Below are positions 1 to 8,335 of a stretch of 8,335 nt of DNA, piece by piece. How positions within the stretch are numbered: position 1 is the stretch's first letter; the number at the start of each line of letters is the position of its first letter. The translations under genes and the position numbers were made by a program. The notes under the pieces are model-generated. The model was not told where the DNA came from, searched no databases, and worked only from the letters and a program-made list of their open reading frames with translations. This DNA is from Promethearchaeota archaeon (GTDB taxonomy: Archaea; Asgardarchaeota; Hermodarchaeia; Hermodarchaeales; Hermodarchaeaceae), in NCBI GenBank assembly GCA_048938295.1, contig JBHLMI010000049.1, forward strand, positions 1 to 8,335, in the 5' to 3' direction.

Positions 1-80
1 TCGCTAAGAATCATCTCTACTGCCAGAGCGGATTGGGATTCCCTACGCTTAGGTTTGGCAGTTGGTTCTTCTTCGTGCAA
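1..80 (-). CDS. Possible 5' end of a gene running off the left edge (TTG start; MHEEEPTAKPKRRESQSALAVEMILS...), product unknown
   Basis: Reverse complement reads GAGAGG-attcac-TTG (SD-like at 87-92, TTG at 80-78), then 26 open codons to the edge with a charged, protein-like N-terminus. Too short to recognise. Confidence 0.35.
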   Translation of the reverse strand, partial: MHEEEPTAKPKRRESQSALAVEMILS

Positions 81-123
81 GTGAATCCTCTCTTAGGTTC
101 TTATCTAGTGTAGAAATGAGGGA

Positions 124-147
124 AACGGGGACATAAAAATCCCCGTT
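124..147 (-). terminator. Stem-loop terminator candidate for the 175..648 gene
   Basis: Perfect 8-bp inverted repeat AACGGGGA (124-131) / TCCCCGTT (140-147) with an 8-nt loop, 27 nt past the stop codon. On the minus strand it is followed by a pyrimidine-rich run (TCCCTCATTTCT). Confidence 0.6.
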
Positions 148-174
148 CTGGTCTGTAATCCTGGGATAGAACAC

Positions 175-648
175 TTAGATTGTCTTAAGGTCAGCTTCGA
201 TCATTTCACGGGTTTCCTTTTCTTCAACTTCGGCCATAGCCTGTTTCGCAAGCATGAGATACTTGTCTTTGTTTTTTCTGTCGCCTTTCACTTTATATCC
301 ACGGGCGAGCGCTTCGTAGGCATAGGCAAGGTCCCAGTCCTTGATACCTTCCTTTTCACAGATATCGAGGTATGTCTTACCATAATGAATGGCTCGATCT
401 CCATCGCCGAGGACGGCATACACACGGGACAGCTGCCAGTCACCACGGCCAAGGTTAATAGGTGTGGCATCCCATCCGTTTTCAACACGGACTCCCCAAT
501 GATATCGCGAAGCATGAGACGAGTTGACCATCGCATCTTTTTCTTCACCGGTAAGGTCCTTTTTATCCAAATAGCTCCAAGTGTTGTTGAAGAGGTCAAC
601 AGCCATCTTTCTGTGCCATTTTTCAAGAGTGAGTTCTTCATCTGCCAT
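175..648 (-). CDS. Conserved hypothetical alpha-helical (TPR-like) protein, 157 aa
   Basis: ATG at 648 with GGAGGT SD at 657-662. Motifs HRKMAVDLFNxTW, HASRYHW, RGDWQLSRVYAVLG and DWDLAYAYEALAR resemble a widespread uncharacterised prokaryotic family with helical-repeat patterning. Confidence 0.85.
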   Translation of the reverse strand: MADEELTLEKWHRKMAVDLFNNTWSYLDKKDLTGEEKDAMVNSSHASRYHWGVRVENGWDATPINLGRGDWQLSRVYAVLGDGDRAIHYGKTYLDICEKEGIKDWDLAYAYEALARGYKVKGDRKNKDKYLMLAKQAMAEVEEKETREMIEADLKTI

Positions 649-656
649 GTTAATCG

Positions 657-697
657 ACCTCCTATTAGGTAACCAATAATTTAGGTGTACTTAAAAA
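657..697 (-). promoter_or_regulatory. Putative TATA box (TTTTTAAGT, 697-689) and SD (GGAGGT, 662-657) for the 175..648 gene
   Basis: The TATA-like element is about 40 nt upstream of the ATG, consistent with a roughly 20-nt leader carrying the SD. The SD is clear, but the upstream BRE is poor. Confidence 0.4.
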
Positions 698-787
698 TGG
701 ATGAGGTTTTACTAGCATGCGCTTCTCCATCACTGGGTAATGACAATAATGAGAGAGTATTAACAGAAATGCTCAGTTATCCAGTGA

Positions 788-802
788 GACGAAATTTTTA
801 TT
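788..802 (+). promoter_or_regulatory. Putative archaeal BRE-TATA promoter for the longin gene
   Basis: GACGAAA (purine/A-rich, BRE-like) sits directly before TTTTTATT (795-802), in the divergent intergenic region about 110 nt upstream of ATG 913. AAATAAATAT at 847-856 is an alternative TATA candidate. Confidence 0.35.
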
Positions 803-912
803 CGGAACCGTGCTAACACTGAAAGAGCAGCTAGGCAGTCCGACTGAAATAAATATCGGAAGCCTGGGCAGGGAGTTCACGAGCAATAAAGAGCTAGTGG
901 AGATCGGAGAAG

Positions 913-1680
913 ATGATTAAAGCCATATTCATCGTGCTCAACGGTGCTTACGCATTTTCAAGGCAGTACACCGACAAAATTGACCCACACATGCTCTCCG
1001 GACTGCTAACTGCGTTTCGGGTTTCATCGAAGGAATTTGCCACTGGCGAGTTTCGGCAAGCTAAATTTGAAGGCTCCGAAGTCGTGGTTGACGGACTTAC
1101 TGAACGGCCAAATGACTTTGTAGCAATCTTTGCGACCCCAGATGAGCGCTCCACGGATTTAACCAATCTGATGGCCCTCATTAAAACAGCTTTTATCAGC
1201 GATTACGGCGATCGCATCCATACTTGGAATAGTTTACAGGGACCCTTTGCAGACTTTGAACCCACCATTGACCAATTGATCGCCGGATGTATTTGGTGTG
1301 ATACCGAAGAAATAATGGAGCCACCAACAGTTACCTTCACCACGGATCTGATGCCAGCTAAGGAAACGGTGTATCGCGGCAACTCTCTCAACATCAAATA
1401 CTTCATCCACAATAGTAGCAGCAAGTCCATCTACCTAACTGCCATTGTCAACGCCATTCCACACCTGTTCGAACTGGACGGGTTAACCAAGAATGTGATC
1501 CTTCGCAGCACTGCGTTCCTCCGCAACCAGCAACTTAAGCCTAACGAAGCCCATGAATCCATCATCCCCATCAAAGCACGGCGAATCGGGCACACCGAAG
1601 TCGCCCCGATTCTTTTCATCACCCAGGGCAATCAAGCGTTTACTGTACTGGGTGAAAATCGTGAAATGGACATCATCTAG
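913..1680 (+). CDS. Longin-domain protein with a C-terminal Ig-like beta-sandwich domain (Asgard-type), 255 aa
   Basis: aa 1-125 follow the longin order b-b-a-b-b-b-a-a (IKAIFIV, YAFSRQY, DPHMLSGLLTAF, FRQAKF, EVVVD, FVAIFA, LMALIKTAFISDYG, W-N...FADFEPTIDQLI), typical of Asgard longins. aa ~139-255 show Ig-like patterning (YRGNSLNIKYFIHN...LKPNEAHESIIPIKARRIG). GGAG at 899-902; an in-frame stop at 895-897 fixes the start region. Confidence 0.8.
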   Translation: MIKAIFIVLNGAYAFSRQYTDKIDPHMLSGLLTAFRVSSKEFATGEFRQAKFEGSEVVVDGLTERPNDFVAIFATPDERSTDLTNLMALIKTAFISDYGDRIHTWNSLQGPFADFEPTIDQLIAGCIWCDTEEIMEPPTVTFTTDLMPAKETVYRGNSLNIKYFIHNSSSKSIYLTAIVNAIPHLFELDGLTKNVILRSTAFLRNQQLKPNEAHESIIPIKARRIGHTEVAPILFITQGNQAFTVLGENREMDII

Positions 1681-1771
1681 CGGAGAGGGTTTTGCGACCG
1701 TTCATGCTTCTTAACTTCAACCACGCATGGGGTGGTGGTCAACTTGTTGAAGTCAGATTTTCTTCGATTAC

Positions 1772-1975
1772 ATGATAACCATGCAACCACCCAAGAGGTG
1801 GCATAATTGCTGTTCACCCAATTTAAGCAACTGCCTGCGAACTGATGTTAGGTACGGACTAATCTCTCCCAGCGTAGACCCCTTACACTTTACTTATGTT
1901 TGTCTAGACTGTAGTTTCGTCCACACTTTTACAGGTATGCGAACATGGACTAGACTATGCAAGAAAAGCAAATAG
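1772..1975 (+). CDS. Possible Cys-rich (zinc-ribbon-like) microprotein, 64-67 aa
   Basis: The only ORF of 60 aa or more in the 317-nt gap between convergent genes. It has HNCC near the N-terminus and YVCLDCSF later. No SD is seen, so it could be spurious. Confidence 0.3.
   Translation: MITMQPPKRWHNCCSPNLSNCLRTDVRYGLISPSVDPLHFTYVCLDCSFVHTFTGMRTWTRLCKKSK
1961..1975 (-). terminator. Possible U-rich archaeal terminator of the hdr/mvh operon
   Basis: The minus strand reads ...ATTTGCTTTTCTT about 25-35 nt after the mvhA stop. No strong hairpin. Confidence 0.3.
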
Positions 1976-1997
1976 CAGTTCTCGCTGATATAGAAGC

Positions 1998-3368
1998 CTA
2001 TTGAATCAACTCTATCATATGCACTGAACAGCTTATGCAAGGGTCGTAGGCTCGGACGAGTGGCTCAAGTTTTTGTGCTACGGTGTTGTGGCTTTCTGGT
2101 GCGGGTTTGAGGAGCTCGGGGAGGAGTTCTTGGGCTTTGGCTTGGATGGCGTGTTCAATGGTGCGGACGTTTTGTCCGGTGGCGATCATGCAGTTGACTT
2201 TGGTGATGATGCCCTCGTCGTTGGTCCAGTAGTTGTGGAAGAGAGTACCGCGGGGGGCTTCGACGACACCGACGCCTTCGCCAGCACGGGGTTCGGTGGG
2301 GACGCGGTAGTTGTCTTCTTGAAGGGTGGAATCTTCGATGAGAGTGATAGCCTGTTCGACTGCGCTGACTAATTCGGTGGAACGGGCGAGGTTATAGGCG
2401 ATGGGGTCGTGGACGGGTTTACTTACAAATAGCTCATAGAGTTGATCGTGGTACCCTTGAGCGAGGTCGCTGGCCATTTGTTTGGCGACATTGAGTCGGG
2501 CGAGGGGGCCGACGCGATAGTTGCCTTTGTCGGGTCCGAGGTCTTTAATGAAGGGGTATTTGACGGTGGTATAGGGCATAGCGTCTTCGGCAATGTATTT
2601 CGCGTAATCTTTGGGCAAAAAGTCGTGAAGTTTCTTTCCTTCGGGGGTGATGAAGCGGAGCGTACCATCATAGATATCATGGACCCCCTTATTGTGCAGA
2701 CCAAGGTAATGGGTTGGGTCACTAAGATAGTAGCCAACCTTGTTGTCAGCTTTCGGGGCGAGTTTAAAATAGAGATCTGCAATAGCTTGAGCGGTTTTCA
2801 AAGCTTTGGGAGCTTGTTTGGCTAATTTATCGCGTTCTTCTTCGGGTAATGGTCCAGCCATCCCCCCTGGAACAGCTGTGCAGGGGTGGATCATGCGTCC
2901 TCCAACGGCTTTGATGATGTTTTGGCCGAACATCCGTAGTTCGATTCCGACCTTGGCAAGTTTGGGATCCTTTGCAGCCACTGCTAAAACGTTTGGAGTG
3001 TCGGGAGTGAGAAAATCTGGTAGCGCTAGGTAGACTTGATGAAGGGCGTGGCTATGGATGTATTCGCCAAAATTTTCAAGGTGGCGAAGCTTGACAGCTT
3101 GTGCTGGTGGTGTGACGCCCCAGGCTGCTTCGACCGCCTTGACTGAGCCGAGATGGTGGGCAACCGAACAGATTCCACAAATCCGTTCAGAGAGTTGGGG
3201 AGCATCTTCGGCGGGAATGCCTTCCATGAAACGTTCGAACATCCGTGGGGATTCGATAATGTGGAAGTGGCATTGGTTAAGTTTGCCACCGCTGACATCT
3301 AACGTGATTTTGGCGTGTCCTTCCAGGCGGGTCATGGGTTCGAATTCGATGTGTTTGGGTTTACTCAT
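1998..3368 (-). CDS. mvhA: [NiFe]-hydrogenase large subunit (MvhA-like, group 3), 456 aa
   Basis: N-terminal EPMTRLEGH, L1 motif RICGICSVAH, GVGVVEAPRGTLFH, and L2 motif RAYDPCISCSVH plus a 6-aa tail. The true start is ATG 3368 (ATGA overlap with the mvhG stop; GGAGTGA SD at 3376-3382), not 3545. Confidence 0.93.
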   Translation of the reverse strand: MSKPKHIEFEPMTRLEGHAKITLDVSGGKLNQCHFHIIESPRMFERFMEGIPAEDAPQLSERICGICSVAHHLGSVKAVEAAWGVTPPAQAVKLRHLENFGEYIHSHALHQVYLALPDFLTPDTPNVLAVAAKDPKLAKVGIELRMFGQNIIKAVGGRMIHPCTAVPGGMAGPLPEEERDKLAKQAPKALKTAQAIADLYFKLAPKADNKVGYYLSDPTHYLGLHNKGVHDIYDGTLRFITPEGKKLHDFLPKDYAKYIAEDAMPYTTVKYPFIKDLGPDKGNYRVGPLARLNVAKQMASDLAQGYHDQLYELFVSKPVHDPIAYNLARSTELVSAVEQAITLIEDSTLQEDNYRVPTEPRAGEGVGVVEAPRGTLFHNYWTNDEGIITKVNCMIATGQNVRTIEHAIQAKAQELLPELLKPAPESHNTVAQKLEPLVRAYDPCISCSVHMIELIQ

Positions 3369-4246
3369 TTTTTCCTCACTCCTTTCCGTAAGTTGTCGAG
3401 TTTGGATGAAGCGTAAGTGTACCGGGCAAAGGTTCCAGCAAGGCGGGGTAATTTGAAGTTGGCAATTTGGTCCTCTTCCATTGCCGCTAATGCGTCCAGC
3501 ATAGCGACTCCTTGGTCCCAGACGGTTTCCGAGGGACCGCGGCAACCGGTACAGGGCATGTTACGACGGGTGCATTCGGCATTACAACCTGCGCGGGTGG
3601 CAGGGCCCATGCAAAGAAAGCCTTGAGAGAGGAGACAGGTTCCGGGTTCAGGAATTTCATGGGTGCGCCGCAGCTGTTTGGGTTTCTCGGTTAATCGTTC
3701 GAGGGGACACTCGTCACAGATGCTTTTCTTGGAAAGTTGGGGTGTTTCTCCGGCTAGTAGAGTAGTAATTACTTTGGCGATTTCATCAGGGTGGGGAGGA
3801 CAGCCTGGGATGACGAAATCAACTTTGACAACGTCACTGAGGCGAAGGTCGGCGGGAAGGACTTGTGGCACATTCTCGTGGGGAACCATCTTCTGCGCCA
3901 TTAGCACTGTTTTATGATATACATACTCAACACCTTCTTGGGCGTTGAAGGTATTAGCGAGGCCATTTACTCCGCCGTGGGCTGAGCAGGCGCCAAAGGC
4001 AATAAGGAATTTTGCTTGTTTACGCATGGCTTTGGCCATTTCTTGGTCGTGGTCTGTGCGAATACTGCCTTCGATAAGGGCTACGTCAATGTTAGGGGGT
4101 ATCGGGTTCTTAGTGTCTACAATGGGATAGGAGTAGACGATTTCGACGTCTTTGAGCAGGTCGAGGAGAGCTGTACCAGTATCGAGTAACGCGATGTGGC
4201 AGCCACTACAACCGGCCATACCCATGGTTGCGATGCGGACGGTCAT
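3365..4246 (-). CDS. mvhG: F420-non-reducing [NiFe]-hydrogenase small subunit, 293 aa
   Basis: GCSGCH, EGS, FGACSAHGG, PGCPP, SICDECP, CLLSQGFLCMGPATRAGC and CTGCRGP Fe-S motifs. Start is ATG 4246 (ATGA overlap with the mvhD stop; GAGGTGA SD at 4254-4260). Confidence 0.93.
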   Translation of the reverse strand: MTVRIATMGMAGCSGCHIALLDTGTALLDLLKDVEIVYSYPIVDTKNPIPPNIDVALIEGSIRTDHDQEMAKAMRKQAKFLIAFGACSAHGGVNGLANTFNAQEGVEYVYHKTVLMAQKMVPHENVPQVLPADLRLSDVVKVDFVIPGCPPHPDEIAKVITTLLAGETPQLSKKSICDECPLERLTEKPKQLRRTHEIPEPGTCLLSQGFLCMGPATRAGCNAECTRRNMPCTGCRGPSETVWDQGVAMLDALAAMEEDQIANFKLPRLAGTFARYTYASSKLDNLRKGVRKK

Positions 4247-4719
4247 TCGCACTTCACCTCTGGTTTCATTTTCTTCAGCGGATTAGGCCCCAGTTTTAAA
4301 ATTCGTTGATAAAACGACGAGGTAGTTTCTACCCATCTGTTAGCCATCCCTGCGCTCATTAGTTCAAAAATTAGACGACCACCGAGTCCAATGTCTTCGA
4401 GATCTTGTGCCAATTTCTGCATCCGCTTTTCAGCGTGGTAGTTTCCCGTGACGAAGTGGCATTGATCTTTAAGACAGCCAGTTACCATGACACCATCCGC
4501 GCCTTCTCGAAGGACTTCAAGTACATGGAGCGGATCAACTCGACCTGAGCAGGGAACACGGATGATCTCCACATTCACGGGATAGGACAGTTTACTGGTT
4601 CCAGCAAGATCAGCCGCGCCATAGGAGCAATAGTGGCAGCAGAAGCTAACGATTCGTGGCTCAAAAGCCGGTTTGGGCTTTGCCAATGCTTTTACAGATT
4701 TCGTTTTGCTTTTACTCAT
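4243..4719 (-). CDS. mvhD: [2Fe-2S] hydrogenase delta subunit MvhD/FlpD, 158 aa
   Basis: FCCHYCSYGAADLAG, RVPCSGRVD, EGADGVMVTGC and CHFVTGN motifs. The ATG overlaps the hdrA TGA. There is a Lys-rich N-terminal extension. Confidence 0.95.
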   Translation of the reverse strand: MSKSKTKSVKALAKPKPAFEPRIVSFCCHYCSYGAADLAGTSKLSYPVNVEIIRVPCSGRVDPLHVLEVLREGADGVMVTGCLKDQCHFVTGNYHAEKRMQKLAQDLEDIGLGGRLIFELMSAGMANRWVETTSSFYQRILKLGPNPLKKMKPEVKCE

Positions 4720-6704
4720 TTTTTAGATGCCCCTATATTGGCTAGAAGGCCTTCAATTTGAGAGTAAATCTGTTTGTCGCGGTAGTGTCGGAGTTGAATG
4801 GCTTCGGCGGGACATTCGACGACGCAGATACCACAGCCTTTACAAGCAACTTCAATGGTTTTGGCGACACCGCCTTCCATGTAGATGGCACTGTATGGAC
4901 AGACCGCGTAGCAGTTGGCACAGCCGATACAGAGGGATTCATCGACGATGGATTTAGCAAGATCCACTTCAACTTCTCCTTTGCTCATTGGGATGGCGGC
5001 ATGAGAAGCTGCAGCAGCACCCATGAAGGAGGATTCAGCGATGTCTCGTGGACTGCTGCAAGCGCCAGCGAGGAAGATCCCATTGGTTGTTGTGTCAACT
5101 GGTGCGAGTTTCAGATGATATTCTCGGAAGAATCCATCTAAATCCACTTCTAAATTCAGGGTATGGGCGAGTTCCTTGGCTCCGCTGTCGGGAATCATGG
5201 CGGCGGATAAGACGAGTAAATCTACGGGGAATTGCTCTTGCGTGCCGTTATGATGGTCGACGGTCAGGTTCAGACTCTTGCTATTATCCTCTTTGACATC
5301 TGTAATATCTGCACGATGGAATTTTACACCTAGACGTTGTGCATCCAGATAATAGCGTTCATACTCTTTACCTTGGAGCCGAATGTCTTTGTAGAATATA
5401 GTAACCTGGGTGTCGGGCCAATGTTCTTTAATGTAGACTGCATGTTTCATCGCGACTTGACAACAAACGCGGGAACAGTGAGAATAGTAATTCGGGTCAC
5501 GACTGCCAACACACTGAATCATCCCGACCCTTTTTGGTAATTTCTTATCCGAAATACGTCGTAGTTGTCCGTCAGTAGGACTCATAGGATCGAGGATTCG
5601 GGCAAGCATGAATTGAGAAATGACATTGGGGAATTCGCCATACCCATACATTCCTTCTGGTTTAAAAACATCATAACCTGTGGCAACAATCACTGTCCCC
5701 ACATTAATATCGGTATCTTTTGGTTGTTCGTCAAGATGAATCGCGTTGACTGGGCAGATTTGTTCACATTTGCCACATTTCGTGCAGGTATCAAAATCAA
5801 TCACAGGGGCTCTTGGAACAGCTTGAGGATAGGGATAGTAGATGGCTTTCCGATTGGCTAATCCATAATTATGTTCGTCGGGAACTTCAACCGGGCAGAC
5901 CTCCATACATTTGCCACAGAGCGTGCAAGTATCGATGTCCACACCCCGAGGTTTGCTATGAAGTCGAGCTTGGAAGTTACCAATATAGCCACTAAATTGT
6001 GTAACCTCCGTTTGTGTATACACGTTAATTTTAGGGTCATTGAGAAGGATCCGCTTTGACAAACATTTACGCGCCATTTCTCCATGGCGCGGTGGAACAC
6101 AGACTCCGCAAGTATCAGTCATGAAGACGAAGCCTAATTGTGCTGATTTTCCACCAAGTGCTGGACTACGTTCAACCAGATGCACTTCATAACCATTATC
6201 AGCGAGAAGTGTTGTTGCTGTAATTCCAGCGATTCCTGCTCCAATGATCATACAAACGGGAGGTACTTTTTGTGTTGTTGAGCCAATGGGTTCAAGTTCT
6301 GCTGCGCGATAGACTCCAGCACGGATGAGGTCTTTAGCTTTCTCTGTTGCTTTAGCGTAGTCGTCTTTTTGTTTCATGTGAGCCCAGGAGACTTGTTCGC
6401 GAATATTGACCATTTCAAAAAAGAAGGGATTGATTCCGGCCTCTAATACGGTTCGACGGAACGTGGGTTCATGTAATTTTGGACTACAAGATGCCACAAT
6501 GACGCGATTAAGCTTATGTTTCTTGATGTGCTTTTTGATGATATTTTGCCCTTCCTCTGAACAGGTAAAAAGCTGCCATCCAGCATAAGCAACATGAGGA
6601 AGGCCCTTTGCATATTCAGCAACGGCAGGAACATCAACAACTTTGGCAATATTGGTACCACATTTACAGACAAAAACACCGATTCGTGGTTTTTCGATCG
6701 TCAT
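4716..6704 (-). CDS. hdrA: Heterodisulfide reductase subunit A-like flavoprotein (complete, stand-alone), 662 aa
   Basis: N-terminal GVFVCKCGTNI and CSPKLHE, FAD-binding IGAGIAG, inserted 2x[4Fe-4S] domain (CTLCGKCMEVCP, CTKCGKCEQICP), QCVGSRD...CSRVCC, LAGACSSPRDI, and C-terminal ferredoxin (CIGCANCYAVCP, CKGCGICVVECP). True start is ATG 6704 with GGAGG at 6713-6717. Confidence 0.95.
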   Translation of the reverse strand: MTIEKPRIGVFVCKCGTNIAKVVDVPAVAEYAKGLPHVAYAGWQLFTCSEEGQNIIKKHIKKHKLNRVIVASCSPKLHEPTFRRTVLEAGINPFFFEMVNIREQVSWAHMKQKDDYAKATEKAKDLIRAGVYRAAELEPIGSTTQKVPPVCMIIGAGIAGITATTLLADNGYEVHLVERSPALGGKSAQLGFVFMTDTCGVCVPPRHGEMARKCLSKRILLNDPKINVYTQTEVTQFSGYIGNFQARLHSKPRGVDIDTCTLCGKCMEVCPVEVPDEHNYGLANRKAIYYPYPQAVPRAPVIDFDTCTKCGKCEQICPVNAIHLDEQPKDTDINVGTVIVATGYDVFKPEGMYGYGEFPNVISQFMLARILDPMSPTDGQLRRISDKKLPKRVGMIQCVGSRDPNYYSHCSRVCCQVAMKHAVYIKEHWPDTQVTIFYKDIRLQGKEYERYYLDAQRLGVKFHRADITDVKEDNSKSLNLTVDHHNGTQEQFPVDLLVLSAAMIPDSGAKELAHTLNLEVDLDGFFREYHLKLAPVDTTTNGIFLAGACSSPRDIAESSFMGAAAASHAAIPMSKGEVEVDLAKSIVDESLCIGCANCYAVCPYSAIYMEGGVAKTIEVACKGCGICVVECPAEAIQLRHYRDKQIYSQIEGLLANIGASKK

Positions 6705-6708
6705 TTTC

Positions 6709-8335
6709 CTAGCCTCCAGTACTCGCTTTGATATTTGCAACCGCTTTTCGAGCAAAGGCAGCAAACTCCTTTGCATCGCGTCCGATTAACTGTGCAACTT
6801 GAACTTTGTTTGGATTCAGACCTGATTGGGCGAGAAGATTTCGGACGACCTGAGCCCGGCTGTTTGCCATTCGAGCTCCACGTCCATAATGACAGAGTTT
6901 TGAATCACACGCAAAAAGAATCACACCATCAGCACCAGCTTCAATCGTCTGAAGAAGTTTAGGTGCGGATATACTGCCTGTACATGGAACTTCAAGAATG
7001 TGTAGATCAGCAGGATAGTGAAGGCGTTCCTCACCTGCTTCATCAATAGCGCGGTAAACACATTCATTACAAGCGAATCCGACGATTAGGTTCTCGGTTC
7101 CTTCAACACTATTACTTAACAAACCCTGGAGCGCAGAATCAATCACTGTGGGATTCGTATTAAGTGGTCCAATAGCCCCCACAGGACAAATCGCCATGCA
7201 TTCGCCACACGCTTGACAGCGAACTTCATCTACAACAACACAATTCCCTTTAGCATCTAGGGATATCGCTTGGGAAGGACAGGCAGAAATGCAAAGCCCA
7301 CATCCATTACAAAGATCTTTATTCACAACAGCAGTATCCAAAGCCTTGGTCATCGATTGTGTAGCCAGCCATACCGATGCCTGCTCTGCCGCCGCACCAG
7401 CGAGCTCCACCGATTCCGGAATATCCTTGGGGCCGTGACACGTGCCTGCAAGATAAACGCCATTAACATCGGTTCGCGCTAATGCTACTTTTTCATCCAA
7501 GGCTTTAAAGAACCCGAGTGAACCTATAGGTACACCGAACATCTTAGCAAGTTCTTTGGTTCCCGGTGAAGGAGTCATTGCACAGGAGAGGACCACTAAA
7601 TCAGCTTCAATGGATTTCATTACACCATCCGGATCAGAGTATTTTACGACGGGTCTATCATTGGCACGACTAATTTCGACAGTATCACCACGGTAAACAA
7701 CTTTGATATTATATTCTTCACAGGCACGCACATAGAATTCATCAAAGCCCTTTCCACCGGCCCGGATATCCCGCGCTACAATGGTGATGTCAATATTCGG
7801 ATCATATTCAAGTTTTGCCAGTTCAGCATGCTTAATCGCAGCCATACAACAATAGGCTGAACATTGCCAGCTAAACCGCTCATCACGACTCCCCACACAT
7901 TGTATCATCACAATATTCTCAGGCTTACGACCATCGGAGGGCACCTCCAATTTCCCACCAAAGGGCCCAACGGAGTCCATCATTCGAATAAACTGCATTT
8001 GCGTAATTACATCCGGGTTCTCCGCATAATGCAACTCTGGAACCACGGAGGGATCAAATTCCTTGAATCCCGTGGCAAGAATCACGCTGCCCACCTGCAC
8101 TTGAACTGTCTCATCCTTCATCTCATAATCAATAGCATTCGCCGGACAGATCTTTTCACACACTCCGCATTTATCGGTGGTCAGCTTCTTACAATGTGCA
8201 GCATCAATTGTAACCTTCCGTGGCACACTCTGAGAAAACGGCATATAGATGGCTTTCCGCTTCGCTATCCCCCACGACCAATCATCGTCAACTTTGGTCG
8301 GACATTTCTCGATACACTGCATGCATCCTGTGCAC
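6709..8335 (-). CDS. hdrA: HdrA-MvhD fusion protein (QmoB-like architecture), 5'-truncated by the window edge
   Basis: The frame is open to the edge (CTGC precedes MQCIEKCP, completing a CxxCxxCxxxCP motif), so the M at 8322 is internal. It contains ATGFKEFDP, QCVGSRD...CSAYCC, LAGTCHGPKDI and two C-terminal ferredoxin motifs, then an MvhD domain (~7095-6712: FACNEC, VPCTGS, GADGV, CDSKLCHYGRG). Confidence 0.93.
   Translation of the reverse strand, partial: CTGCMQCIEKCPTKVDDDWSWGIAKRKAIYMPFSQSVPRKVTIDAAHCKKLTTDKCGVCEKICPANAIDYEMKDETVQVQVGSVILATGFKEFDPSVVPELHYAENPDVITQMQFIRMMDSVGPFGGKLEVPSDGRKPENIVMIQCVGSRDERFSWQCSAYCCMAAIKHAELAKLEYDPNIDITIVARDIRAGGKGFDEFYVRACEEYNIKVVYRGDTVEISRANDRPVVKYSDPDGVMKSIEADLVVLSCAMTPSPGTKELAKMFGVPIGSLGFFKALDEKVALARTDVNGVYLAGTCHGPKDIPESVELAGAAAEQASVWLATQSMTKALDTAVVNKDLCNGCGLCISACPSQAISLDAKGNCVVVDEVRCQACGECMAICPVGAIGPLNTNPTVIDSALQGLLSNSVEGTENLIVGFACNECVYRAIDEAGEERLHYPADLHILEVPCTGSISAPKLLQTIEAGADGVILFACDSKLCHYGRGARMANSRAQVVRNLLAQSGLNPNKVQVAQLIGRDAKEFAAFARKAVANIKASTGG

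Follow-up and report, generated by a model that had tools for sequence, protein, structure and literature searches.

Replacement of the flavin-site glutamate in a tandem pair of HdrAs encoded in an Mvh-type hydrogenase operon of an Asgard archaeon

We analyzed 8,335 nucleotides (nt) of DNA from Promethearchaeota archaeon (GenBank assembly GCA_048938295.1, contig JBHLMI010000049.1, positions 1–8,335; hereafter, the window), the minus strand of which carries a tightly packed operon for an HdrA-MvhD fusion protein, a second HdrA (hereafter, the partner), MvhD, MvhG, and MvhA. The Glu residue used as a mark of the bifurcating flavin site of HdrA (Glu356) is replaced in both HdrAs, by Ile in the fusion and by Ala in the partner, and the Lys residue that accompanies it (Lys409) is retained. 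This replacement is a fixed lineage trait. Phylogenetic trees trace it to a single ancestral change, and residue covariation indicates that the whole flavin pocket was remodelled in an ancient, lineage-wide redesign. In our best explanation, to which we give about even chances, the two proteins are the HdrA heterodimer core of an HdrBC-free Mvh hydrogenase complex with a retuned, still three-way flavin.

Flavin sites of the two HdrAs

Residue numbers 352–410 are those of HdrA from Methanothermococcus thermolithotrophicus (5ODC_A) and were mapped by HMMER alignment to PDB chains. Lys409 hydrogen-bonds flavin N5 in 5ODC (PMC6405883, PMC13514486), and E356 holds K409 in position according to PMC12054007. 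In the alignment with 5ODC_A, MQFIR of the fusion faces the canonical LELER (353–357) and CCMAAIK faces CCMYAMK; the residues of both proteins are located in Table 1. The preliminary description of this DNA had reported that the fusion has lost the Glu and kept the Lys, and that the partner lacks the Glu as well, with a different residue; the alignment agrees on both proteins, each of which carries the Lys and lacks the Glu of the published bifurcating signature (Glu356 and Lys409). Glu356 is present in all five distinct solved methanogen HdrA sequences (5odc, 8rvu, 8rvv, 9sfi, and 7bkb) and in HdrA2 of M. acetivorans, a proven bifurcating HdrA-MvhD fusion with the motif NMQLER and Asn360 (PMC5296606). 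Free variation of position 356 among proven bifurcating enzymes, which would have spoken against a meaning of the loss, was thus not seen. The remaining four HdrA paralogues of the same genome also retain E-x-E-R. The Gln at position 354 of the fusion is not specific, being found in 46 of 156 HdrAs that keep Glu356, including M. acetivorans HdrA2.

The contig edge truncates the fusion gene at its 5′ end. When the assembly was searched, residues 1–25 of the partial fusion protein (P0001) matched the terminus of contig C6 with 100% identity, and this contig holds the 242 codons that begin the gene. Contigs C36 and C6 overlap exactly over 77 bp inside the hdrA-mvhD gene (window 8258–8334 = L009:1500–1576). 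The joined protein consists of 783 amino acids (aa), identical to the length of its orthologues, and its N-terminus carries the GAGIAG motif for flavin adenine dinucleotide (FAD), the DCSIC (Cys197) motif, and the N-terminal Cys domain. The GxGxxG motif, which lay outside the DNA first described, is therefore intact in the full gene, and FAD binding is not in doubt at the motif level. The C-terminal FAD motif G-x-x-x-G-P-K-D-I of the TrxR-like FAD domain of HdrA is found in the window as LAGTCHGPKDIPES. All Cys motifs (N-terminal, Cys197, CxGSRD...C...CC, inserted-ferredoxin, TrxR, and C-terminal ferredoxin) are present in the joined fusion and in the partner (P0002), and the iron-sulfur (Fe-S) Cys columns are invariant across 38 relatives. 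Every Fe-S domain is kept in both subunits despite more than 50% sequence divergence. Complementary domain loss between the two HdrAs, in the manner of anaerobic methanotrophic (ANME) archaea, was not seen, as the N-terminal domain and Cys197 are found in both. The AlphaFold2 model of the full-length orthologue P0006 (93% identical; mean predicted local distance difference test score, 88.7) superimposes on HdrA of the M. marburgensis complex (8rvy_A) with a template modeling score of 0.94 and a root-mean-square deviation of 2.3 Å over 651 columns.

Fusion orthologues with 72–93% identity (about 20 from independent samples of Hermod-, Hod-, Thor-, and Promethearchaeota) show Q-M-Q-[FY]-[IV]-R and keep the Lys, relatives with 63–65% identity show Q-M-Q-L-A-R, and the wider HdrA-MvhD fusions (approximately 775–810 aa; Bathyarchaeia and other Asgard groups) mostly show Q-x-[QE]-L-A-R. 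In regards to the partner, the 662-aa orthologues show Q-x-x-L-[AS]-R together with the Lys, and the motif of the Bathyarchaeial partner clade is Q-L-K-L-A-R. The division of the gene between two contigs could raise the suspicion of a sequencing or assembly error or of a decaying gene copy. This is extremely improbable, because the 77-bp overlap is exact, the joined length is that of the orthologues, the reading frame is uninterrupted, about 20 independently sampled orthologue clusters carry Ile or Val as a fixed residue, and the structure model of the orthologue has high confidence. An error in the sequence, against which the preliminary description had argued from the two different residues, is ruled out by the overlap, the length, and the fixation in orthologues.

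The partner clade has a feature of its own, a conserved insertion of approximately 9 residues with an extra Cys right after the Cys197 motif (CGVCV-x9-R-x-C; P0002 residues ~217–240, window ~6080–6130), which canonical HdrAs do not have. Since Cys197 ligates the N-terminal cluster of the partner subunit, the insertion may alter that cluster, or it may add a redox-active thiol.

Single origin of the Glu loss and covariation in the pocket

We built trees from the 229-aa C-terminal half of the TrxR domain of 350 HdrAs (333 non-identical cores), which comprised the six paralogues of the genome, the matches from two protein searches, and the HdrAs encoded by 83 retrieved loci. The sample covers part of the protein and is skewed to relatives of the two queries, and M. 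acetivorans HdrA2 is absent from it. In the FastTree tree (LG+gamma), all 177 Glu-less cores fell in one clade of 179 tips (support 0.987), and the two Glu-bearing tips inside it have Glu356 together with Asp360. Within the clade, a fusion lineage (96 tips, 0.971) that holds the window fusion is sister to a partner lineage (48 tips, 0.938) that holds P0002, with a support of 0.955. IQ-TREE -fast on 79 representatives supported the core Glu-less clade and the fusion-plus-partner node with approximate likelihood ratio test values of 98 and 91.5, respectively, with two divergent Glu-less sequences uncertainly placed. Because the Glu-less set is one bipartition, the conclusion of a single change holds wherever the root is placed. 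Ala is the most frequent residue at position 356 in both lineages. These trees indicate that Glu changed to Ala once, before the duplication that gave the fusion and partner paralogues, and the Ile of the window is best read as derived (Ala to Val to Ile) inside its own subgroup. Two independent losses, as the different residues had first been taken to mean, are ruled out by both trees.

Other positions of the pocket changed together with position 356. We compared the 177 Glu-less with the 156 Glu-keeping cores, which are not phylogenetically independent. Position 356 of the Glu-less cores is Ala in 142, Ile in 15, Ser in 10, Val in 6, and Thr in 4. Position 360, where the change was from Ser or Asn, is Asp in 170/177 Glu-less cores versus 5/156 Glu-keeping ones. 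Gln occupies position 352 in 159 of the Glu-less cores, where Glu-keeping cores have Ser, Gly, or Ala; position 406 is Ala, Ile, or Val in Glu-less cores and Tyr in 125/156 Glu-keeping cores; and position 410 is His in 142/177 of the former. Lys409 is retained in 169 of the 177. The model of P0006 places Ile358 (full-protein numbering) in helix 354–361 and Asp362 directly past the helix end; since the two residues are four apart, they lie on the same side of the helix. The model and the covariation suggest that the Lys-holding carboxylate was shifted by one helix turn and not lost.

Five clade members have Glu in place of Lys409 (P0028, P0029, and P0031–P0033; CCMAAIEH, CCISAIEH) and belong to the very few without Asp360. 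They form a small subclade of the fusion lineage in which the charge at the flavin N5 site is reversed.

Glu-less HdrAs as a class were already known from the survey counts of PMC12054007, which reports that 87 of 401 HdrAs of methane-metabolising archaea (21.7%) lack E356 and 15.2% lack K409. The passages searched of that survey do not mention MetF or heterodimers, and we did not find in them the Asp360 covariation, an origin from sister paralogues, or the Asgard operons with hydrogenase or MetFV genes. In the searchable literature, we found no description of a pocket redesign of single origin with a covarying Asp, or of the Asgard/Bathyarchaeial hydrogenase-MetFV operon.

Gene context and candidate functions

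A total of 167 loci retrieved from named genomes and metagenomes were sorted into classes. hdrBC genes were found in none of the 10 loci in which both tandem HdrAs are Glu-less, and hydrogenase genes and metFV were found in 7 and 4 of them, respectively; the 129 loci with only Glu-keeping HdrAs had hdrBC in 91, hydrogenase genes in 19, and metFV in 2. The class "nonE+E" was left out of these counts, as some of its non-Glu calls (e.g., L073, L079, L084, and L121) are misaligned short N-terminal fragments of open reading frames (ORFs). The absence of hdrBC is predicted by a tandem in which both HdrAs are Glu-less. Glu loss alone does not predict it, because Glu-less fusions of Bathyarchaeia and Freyarchaeum adjoin hdrCB (the latter lying directly 3′ of these genes), and a rule that Glu loss always occurs without hdrBC is ruled out by the same cases. 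The correlation between Glu loss and tandem hdrA operons without hdrBC that the preliminary description had put forward for testing thus holds for doubly Glu-less tandems and fails for Glu loss as such. As to the window itself, its tandem HdrA pair is linked to a hydrogenase, has the non-canonical flavin site, and stands in an operon without hdrBC, as had been described.

Four Bathyarchaeial loci (L021, L022, L025, and L027) have the order mvhG-mvhA-(Glu-less fusion)-hdrC-hdrB-mvhD-(Glu-keeping HdrA of ~1000 aa). Such clusters would encode a heteromeric Hdr in which an altered flavin site stands beside a canonical one.

The genome that contains the window encodes six HdrA paralogues, among which the Glu-less pair is the sole tandem. 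Two of the four Glu-keeping paralogues adjoin hdrC and hdrB: on contig C51, hdrCB are followed by a 2-oxoacid oxidoreductase, hdrA, and mvhDGA, and on contig C23, hdrCB come after an HdrA-MvhD fusion. An HdrA-MvhD fusion with an N-terminal helix-turn-helix domain adjoins hydrogenase genes on contig C66. The genome has three Mvh-like hydrogenase clusters (HdrA contigs C51, C23, C25, and C66; L011–L014). No gene with a CCG domain (hdrB type) was found among the window genes, and the hdrB-like genes of the genome neighbour other paralogues on different contigs. The window complex may associate physically with HdrBC encoded elsewhere in the genome.

MetFV is linked to the Glu-less pair in several loci. 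In L180, metV-metF-(fusion hdrA)-hdrA-mvhD-mvhG-mvhA follow one another on one strand with short gaps. metVF are also adjacent in L018 (in a cluster with Fwd, Mch, Ftr, and Mtd), L020, L159, and L182, and they lie 3–4 genes off on the opposite strand in L016 and in the genome of the window (C6:50837–52439; 3.4 kb away), which encodes the archaeal methyl branch of the Wood-Ljungdahl pathway and CdhC. MetFV is a candidate partner of the complex and not a necessity. In L179, an FrhB/FdhB-like (F420-binding) gene (14879–16003) follows the tandem pair instead of MetFV, which hints that the pair may serve different acceptor modules.

In the explanation that we favor at about even chances, the two hdrA products would be the halves of an HdrA heterodimer, one with its own MvhD domain and the other with the free neighbouring MvhD, and these halves together with MvhG and MvhA would form a cytoplasmic [NiFe]-hydrogenase complex without HdrBC. 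We infer the heterodimer by analogy with known HdrA dimers; one MvhD per HdrA is likewise deduced and is supported by relatives in which the partner HdrA itself is fused to MvhD. Both flavin sites would share the inherited pocket, with Lys409, a small or hydrophobic residue at 356, Asp360, Gln352, His410, and no Tyr406, and Asp360 would take over the Lys-positioning role of Glu356. The high-potential partner would be one other than HdrBC, with the methylene-tetrahydromethanopterin (H4MPT)/tetrahydrofolate (H4F) reductase MetFV as the best candidate. The flavin would then split or merge electron pairs at a retuned potential, from H2 to ferredoxin and a mid-potential acceptor or in reverse. That it still does so, rather than acting as a plain wire, appears somewhat the more probable alternative. 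The more specific proposal that the Ala/Ile356-Asp360 heterodimer, Mvh hydrogenase, and MetFV are one HdrBC-free enzyme in which H2 reduces a methylene-level one-carbon (C1) carrier and ferredoxin together is speculative, and we regard it as rather unlikely.

Several points weigh against a still bifurcating flavin coupled to MetFV. Glu356 and Lys409 together are used as the mark of the bifurcating HdrA flavin (Appel et al. 2021, as cited in PMC9430772 and PMC12054007), and the Glu is kept in every checkable experimentally proven bifurcating HdrA. The contact between Asp360 and Lys409 is deduced solely from helix periodicity and covariation, and the covariation counts come from related sequences in a sample skewed to the query relatives. 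metFV are absent from the doubly Glu-less loci L017, L033, L036, and L179, and in the genome of the window they are divergent, with four genes between. The same genome encodes a true Mer, scoring above the family cut-off, which rules out MetF as its sole methylene reductase, and a canonical hdrCB...hdrA-mvhDGA cluster; because of these two, neither MetFV nor the Glu-less complex is obviously indispensable.

The published rule would class both flavins as non-bifurcating. It is correlative as far as we found, and we came across no mutational test of it; it is unproven that the absence of the Glu means that bifurcation was lost. A non-bifurcating conduit, as the preliminary description had proposed, is nevertheless a serious possibility, though we hold it for doubtful. 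The Lys would not be held without Glu356, the flavin potentials would be ordinary, and electrons would simply be relayed between the hydrogenase and a single acceptor, such as MetFV, a module of the F420 type, or ferredoxin. The conduit agrees with the published E356/K409 criterion (PMC9430772, PMC12054007) and with the lack of hdrBC in all 10 doubly Glu-less loci; bifurcation could be left to the separate canonical Mvh-HdrABC cluster, and reduction of methylene-H4MPT or methylene-H4F by H2 is exergonic without coupling by textbook redox potentials. However, relatives that are non-bifurcating or doubtful (e.g., sHdrA, with a 349-aa chain in 6tjr, and S. ovata HdrA) lack at least the inserted ferredoxin domain, whereas both window subunits keep every domain, and for this reason we rank the three-way flavin slightly ahead. 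Close Glu-less relatives stand in full mvhGA-hdrA-hdrCB clusters. Lys409 is kept throughout nearly all of the clade and a carboxylate reappears at 360; these two features, the retained Fe-S domains, and the operon link to MetFV leave a bifurcating or confurcating role at least as likely.

A different division of labor is known from BamE of class II benzoyl-CoA reductase, in which the FAD with a Lys at its N5 bifurcates electrons and the second FAD, where Gln replaces the Lys, is described as structural. Tandem HdrAs of ANME archaea have also been proposed to be heterodimers (PMC9012536). The window pair, as the proposed heterodimer, has in common with these systems two non-identical HdrA units in one asymmetric dimer. 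BamE and ANME HdrA3/4 are single fused chains or show complementary domain loss, whereas each window unit is a complete, separate chain, and the altered pocket is the same in both. An asymmetric heterodimer with one catalytic and one structural flavin would fit the Bathyarchaeial clusters, where a Glu-less fusion is accompanied by a Glu-keeping HdrA of ~1000 aa, as well as the insertion with an extra Cys that is found in the partner clade only. We consider it unlikely, because both window subunits have the same pocket signature and the Lys where the structural site of BamE has Gln, and no sequence feature marks either site as dead. Putative QmoA/QmoB tandem pairs of two Desulfobacterota genomes appear to have both Glu and Lys; as their Qmo identity is unconfirmed and the QmoB alignment is poor, they were not used as evidence.

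The proposed complex with a three-way flavin differs from each of the known systems nearest to it. With MvhAGD-HdrABC of methanogens (5ODC, 8RVU, and 7BKB), it has in common the domain set and fold of HdrA, MvhD, MvhG, and MvhA, Lys409, Cys197, and all Fe-S motifs; the window differs in having two HdrA paralogues in place of a homodimer, one MvhD fused, no hdrBC in the operon, and a pocket with Glu356 replaced, Asp360, Gln352, and His410. The window fusion shares the C-terminal MvhD (PF02662) and Gln354 with M. acetivorans HdrA2. The latter works with HdrB2C2 and no second HdrA, whereas the window has no adjacent hdrB2C2 and a second hdrA follows directly. Linked HdrA, MvhD, and MetFV genes are shared with the Hdr-type methylene-tetrahydrofolate reductase MetFV-HdrCBA-MvhD of Moorella and Sporomusa, and the likely job is the same, as both would reduce the Wood-Ljungdahl C1 carrier at the methylene level. 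The bacterial MetFV clusters (including L123 and L170) have hdrCB, no Mvh hydrogenase genes, and one large HdrA of two domains, at least one of which retains both Glu and Lys; the window has two separate HdrAs, a hydrogenase in the operon, no hdrCB, and no Glu356.

Glu356/Lys409 is the only sequence rule in use for bifurcation by HdrA, and many genome-based metabolic models depend on it. Here, a large and ancient clade that spans Bathyarchaeia and the Asgard archaea, the closest archaeal relatives of eukaryotes, has dropped the Glu, kept the Lys, and gained an Asp one helix turn away, with the wiring of a bifurcating enzyme intact. Should bifurcation persist in these enzymes, the rule would be too narrow; otherwise, a common Asgard hydrogenase-HdrA operon has been credited with an impossible function. 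An HdrBC-free H2/MetFV enzyme, if true, would provide an alternative bifurcating pocket and, for the Wood-Ljungdahl pathway of Asgard archaea and Bathyarchaeia, the step of hydrogen coupling that has been missing. The operon, seven genes with metVF, is a defined biochemical target that bears on hydrogen handling in Asgard archaea.

Organization of the operon

The features of the window are listed in Table 1. Neighbouring genes of the operon are spaced by gaps or overlaps of 4 nt: the partner hdrA stop and the mvhD start have 4 nt in common, and the mvhA start (3368) and the mvhG stop share ATGA. The longest ORF of the partner hdrA begins 24 codons earlier (window 6702–6776) and would overlap the fusion gene. 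Because the orthologues consist of 662 aa, we take Met25 (6704) as the true start, which leaves a 4-nt gap to the fusion gene.

Table 1. Features of the window and flavin-site codons of the two HdrAs.
Feature	Position	Strand	Remarks
hdrA-mvhD fusion gene, 3′ 541 codons and stop	6709..8334	(-)	HdrA-like match to 5ODC_A, E 6e-86
Fusion, C-terminal MvhD ([2Fe-2S]) domain	6727..7086	(-)	PF02662, E 8.5e-34; P0001 residues 417-536
Fusion, Gln codon at Glu354-equivalent	7993..7995	(-)	Alignment to 5ODC_A
Fusion, Ile codon (ATT) at Glu356-equivalent	7987..7989	(-)	Ile116 of partial P0001 = Ile358 of full protein
Fusion, Asp codon at 360-equivalent, four residues after Ile	7975..7977	(-)	Covaries with Glu356 loss; Asp362 in full protein
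Fusion, Lys codon (AAG) at Lys409-equivalent	7831..7833	(-)	Lys168 of P0001 = Lys410 of full protein
Partner hdrA (P0002), 662 aa from Met25	4716..6704	(-)	E 7.6e-183 to 5ODC_A
Partner, Ala at Glu356-equivalent	5601-5603	(-)	Motif FMLAR
Partner, Asp at 360-equivalent	5589-5591	(-)	
Partner, Lys at Lys409-equivalent	5445-5447	(-)	Lys444 of P0002
mvhD, free-standing	4243..4719	(-)	PF02662, E 3.5e-44
mvhG, [NiFe]-hydrogenase small subunit	3365..4252	(-)	PF01058
mvhA, [NiFe]-hydrogenase large subunit	1998..3368	(-)	PF00374

The window contains the mvhA, mvhG, mvhD, and hdrA set of the MvhADG-HdrABC complex, and the HdrB/HdrC module of that complex is missing from the operon. Both metal-site motifs of MvhA (RICGICSVAH and DPCISCSVH) were found, and its orthologues have lengths of 457–466 aa. 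The C-terminal domain of the fusion also matches the MvhD chains of 5odc and 8rvu. For both HdrAs, the closest relatives in the database carry the names Hermodarchaeota, Hodarchaeota, Thorarchaeota, or Promethearchaeota, which marks the genome as that of an Asgard archaeon. Directly upstream of the fusion gene, a divergent gene for a protein with a metallo-beta-lactamase fold is found in the same genome (C6:54907–55713; L009:3–665) as well as in L016 (9063–9869) and L182 (9042–9842).

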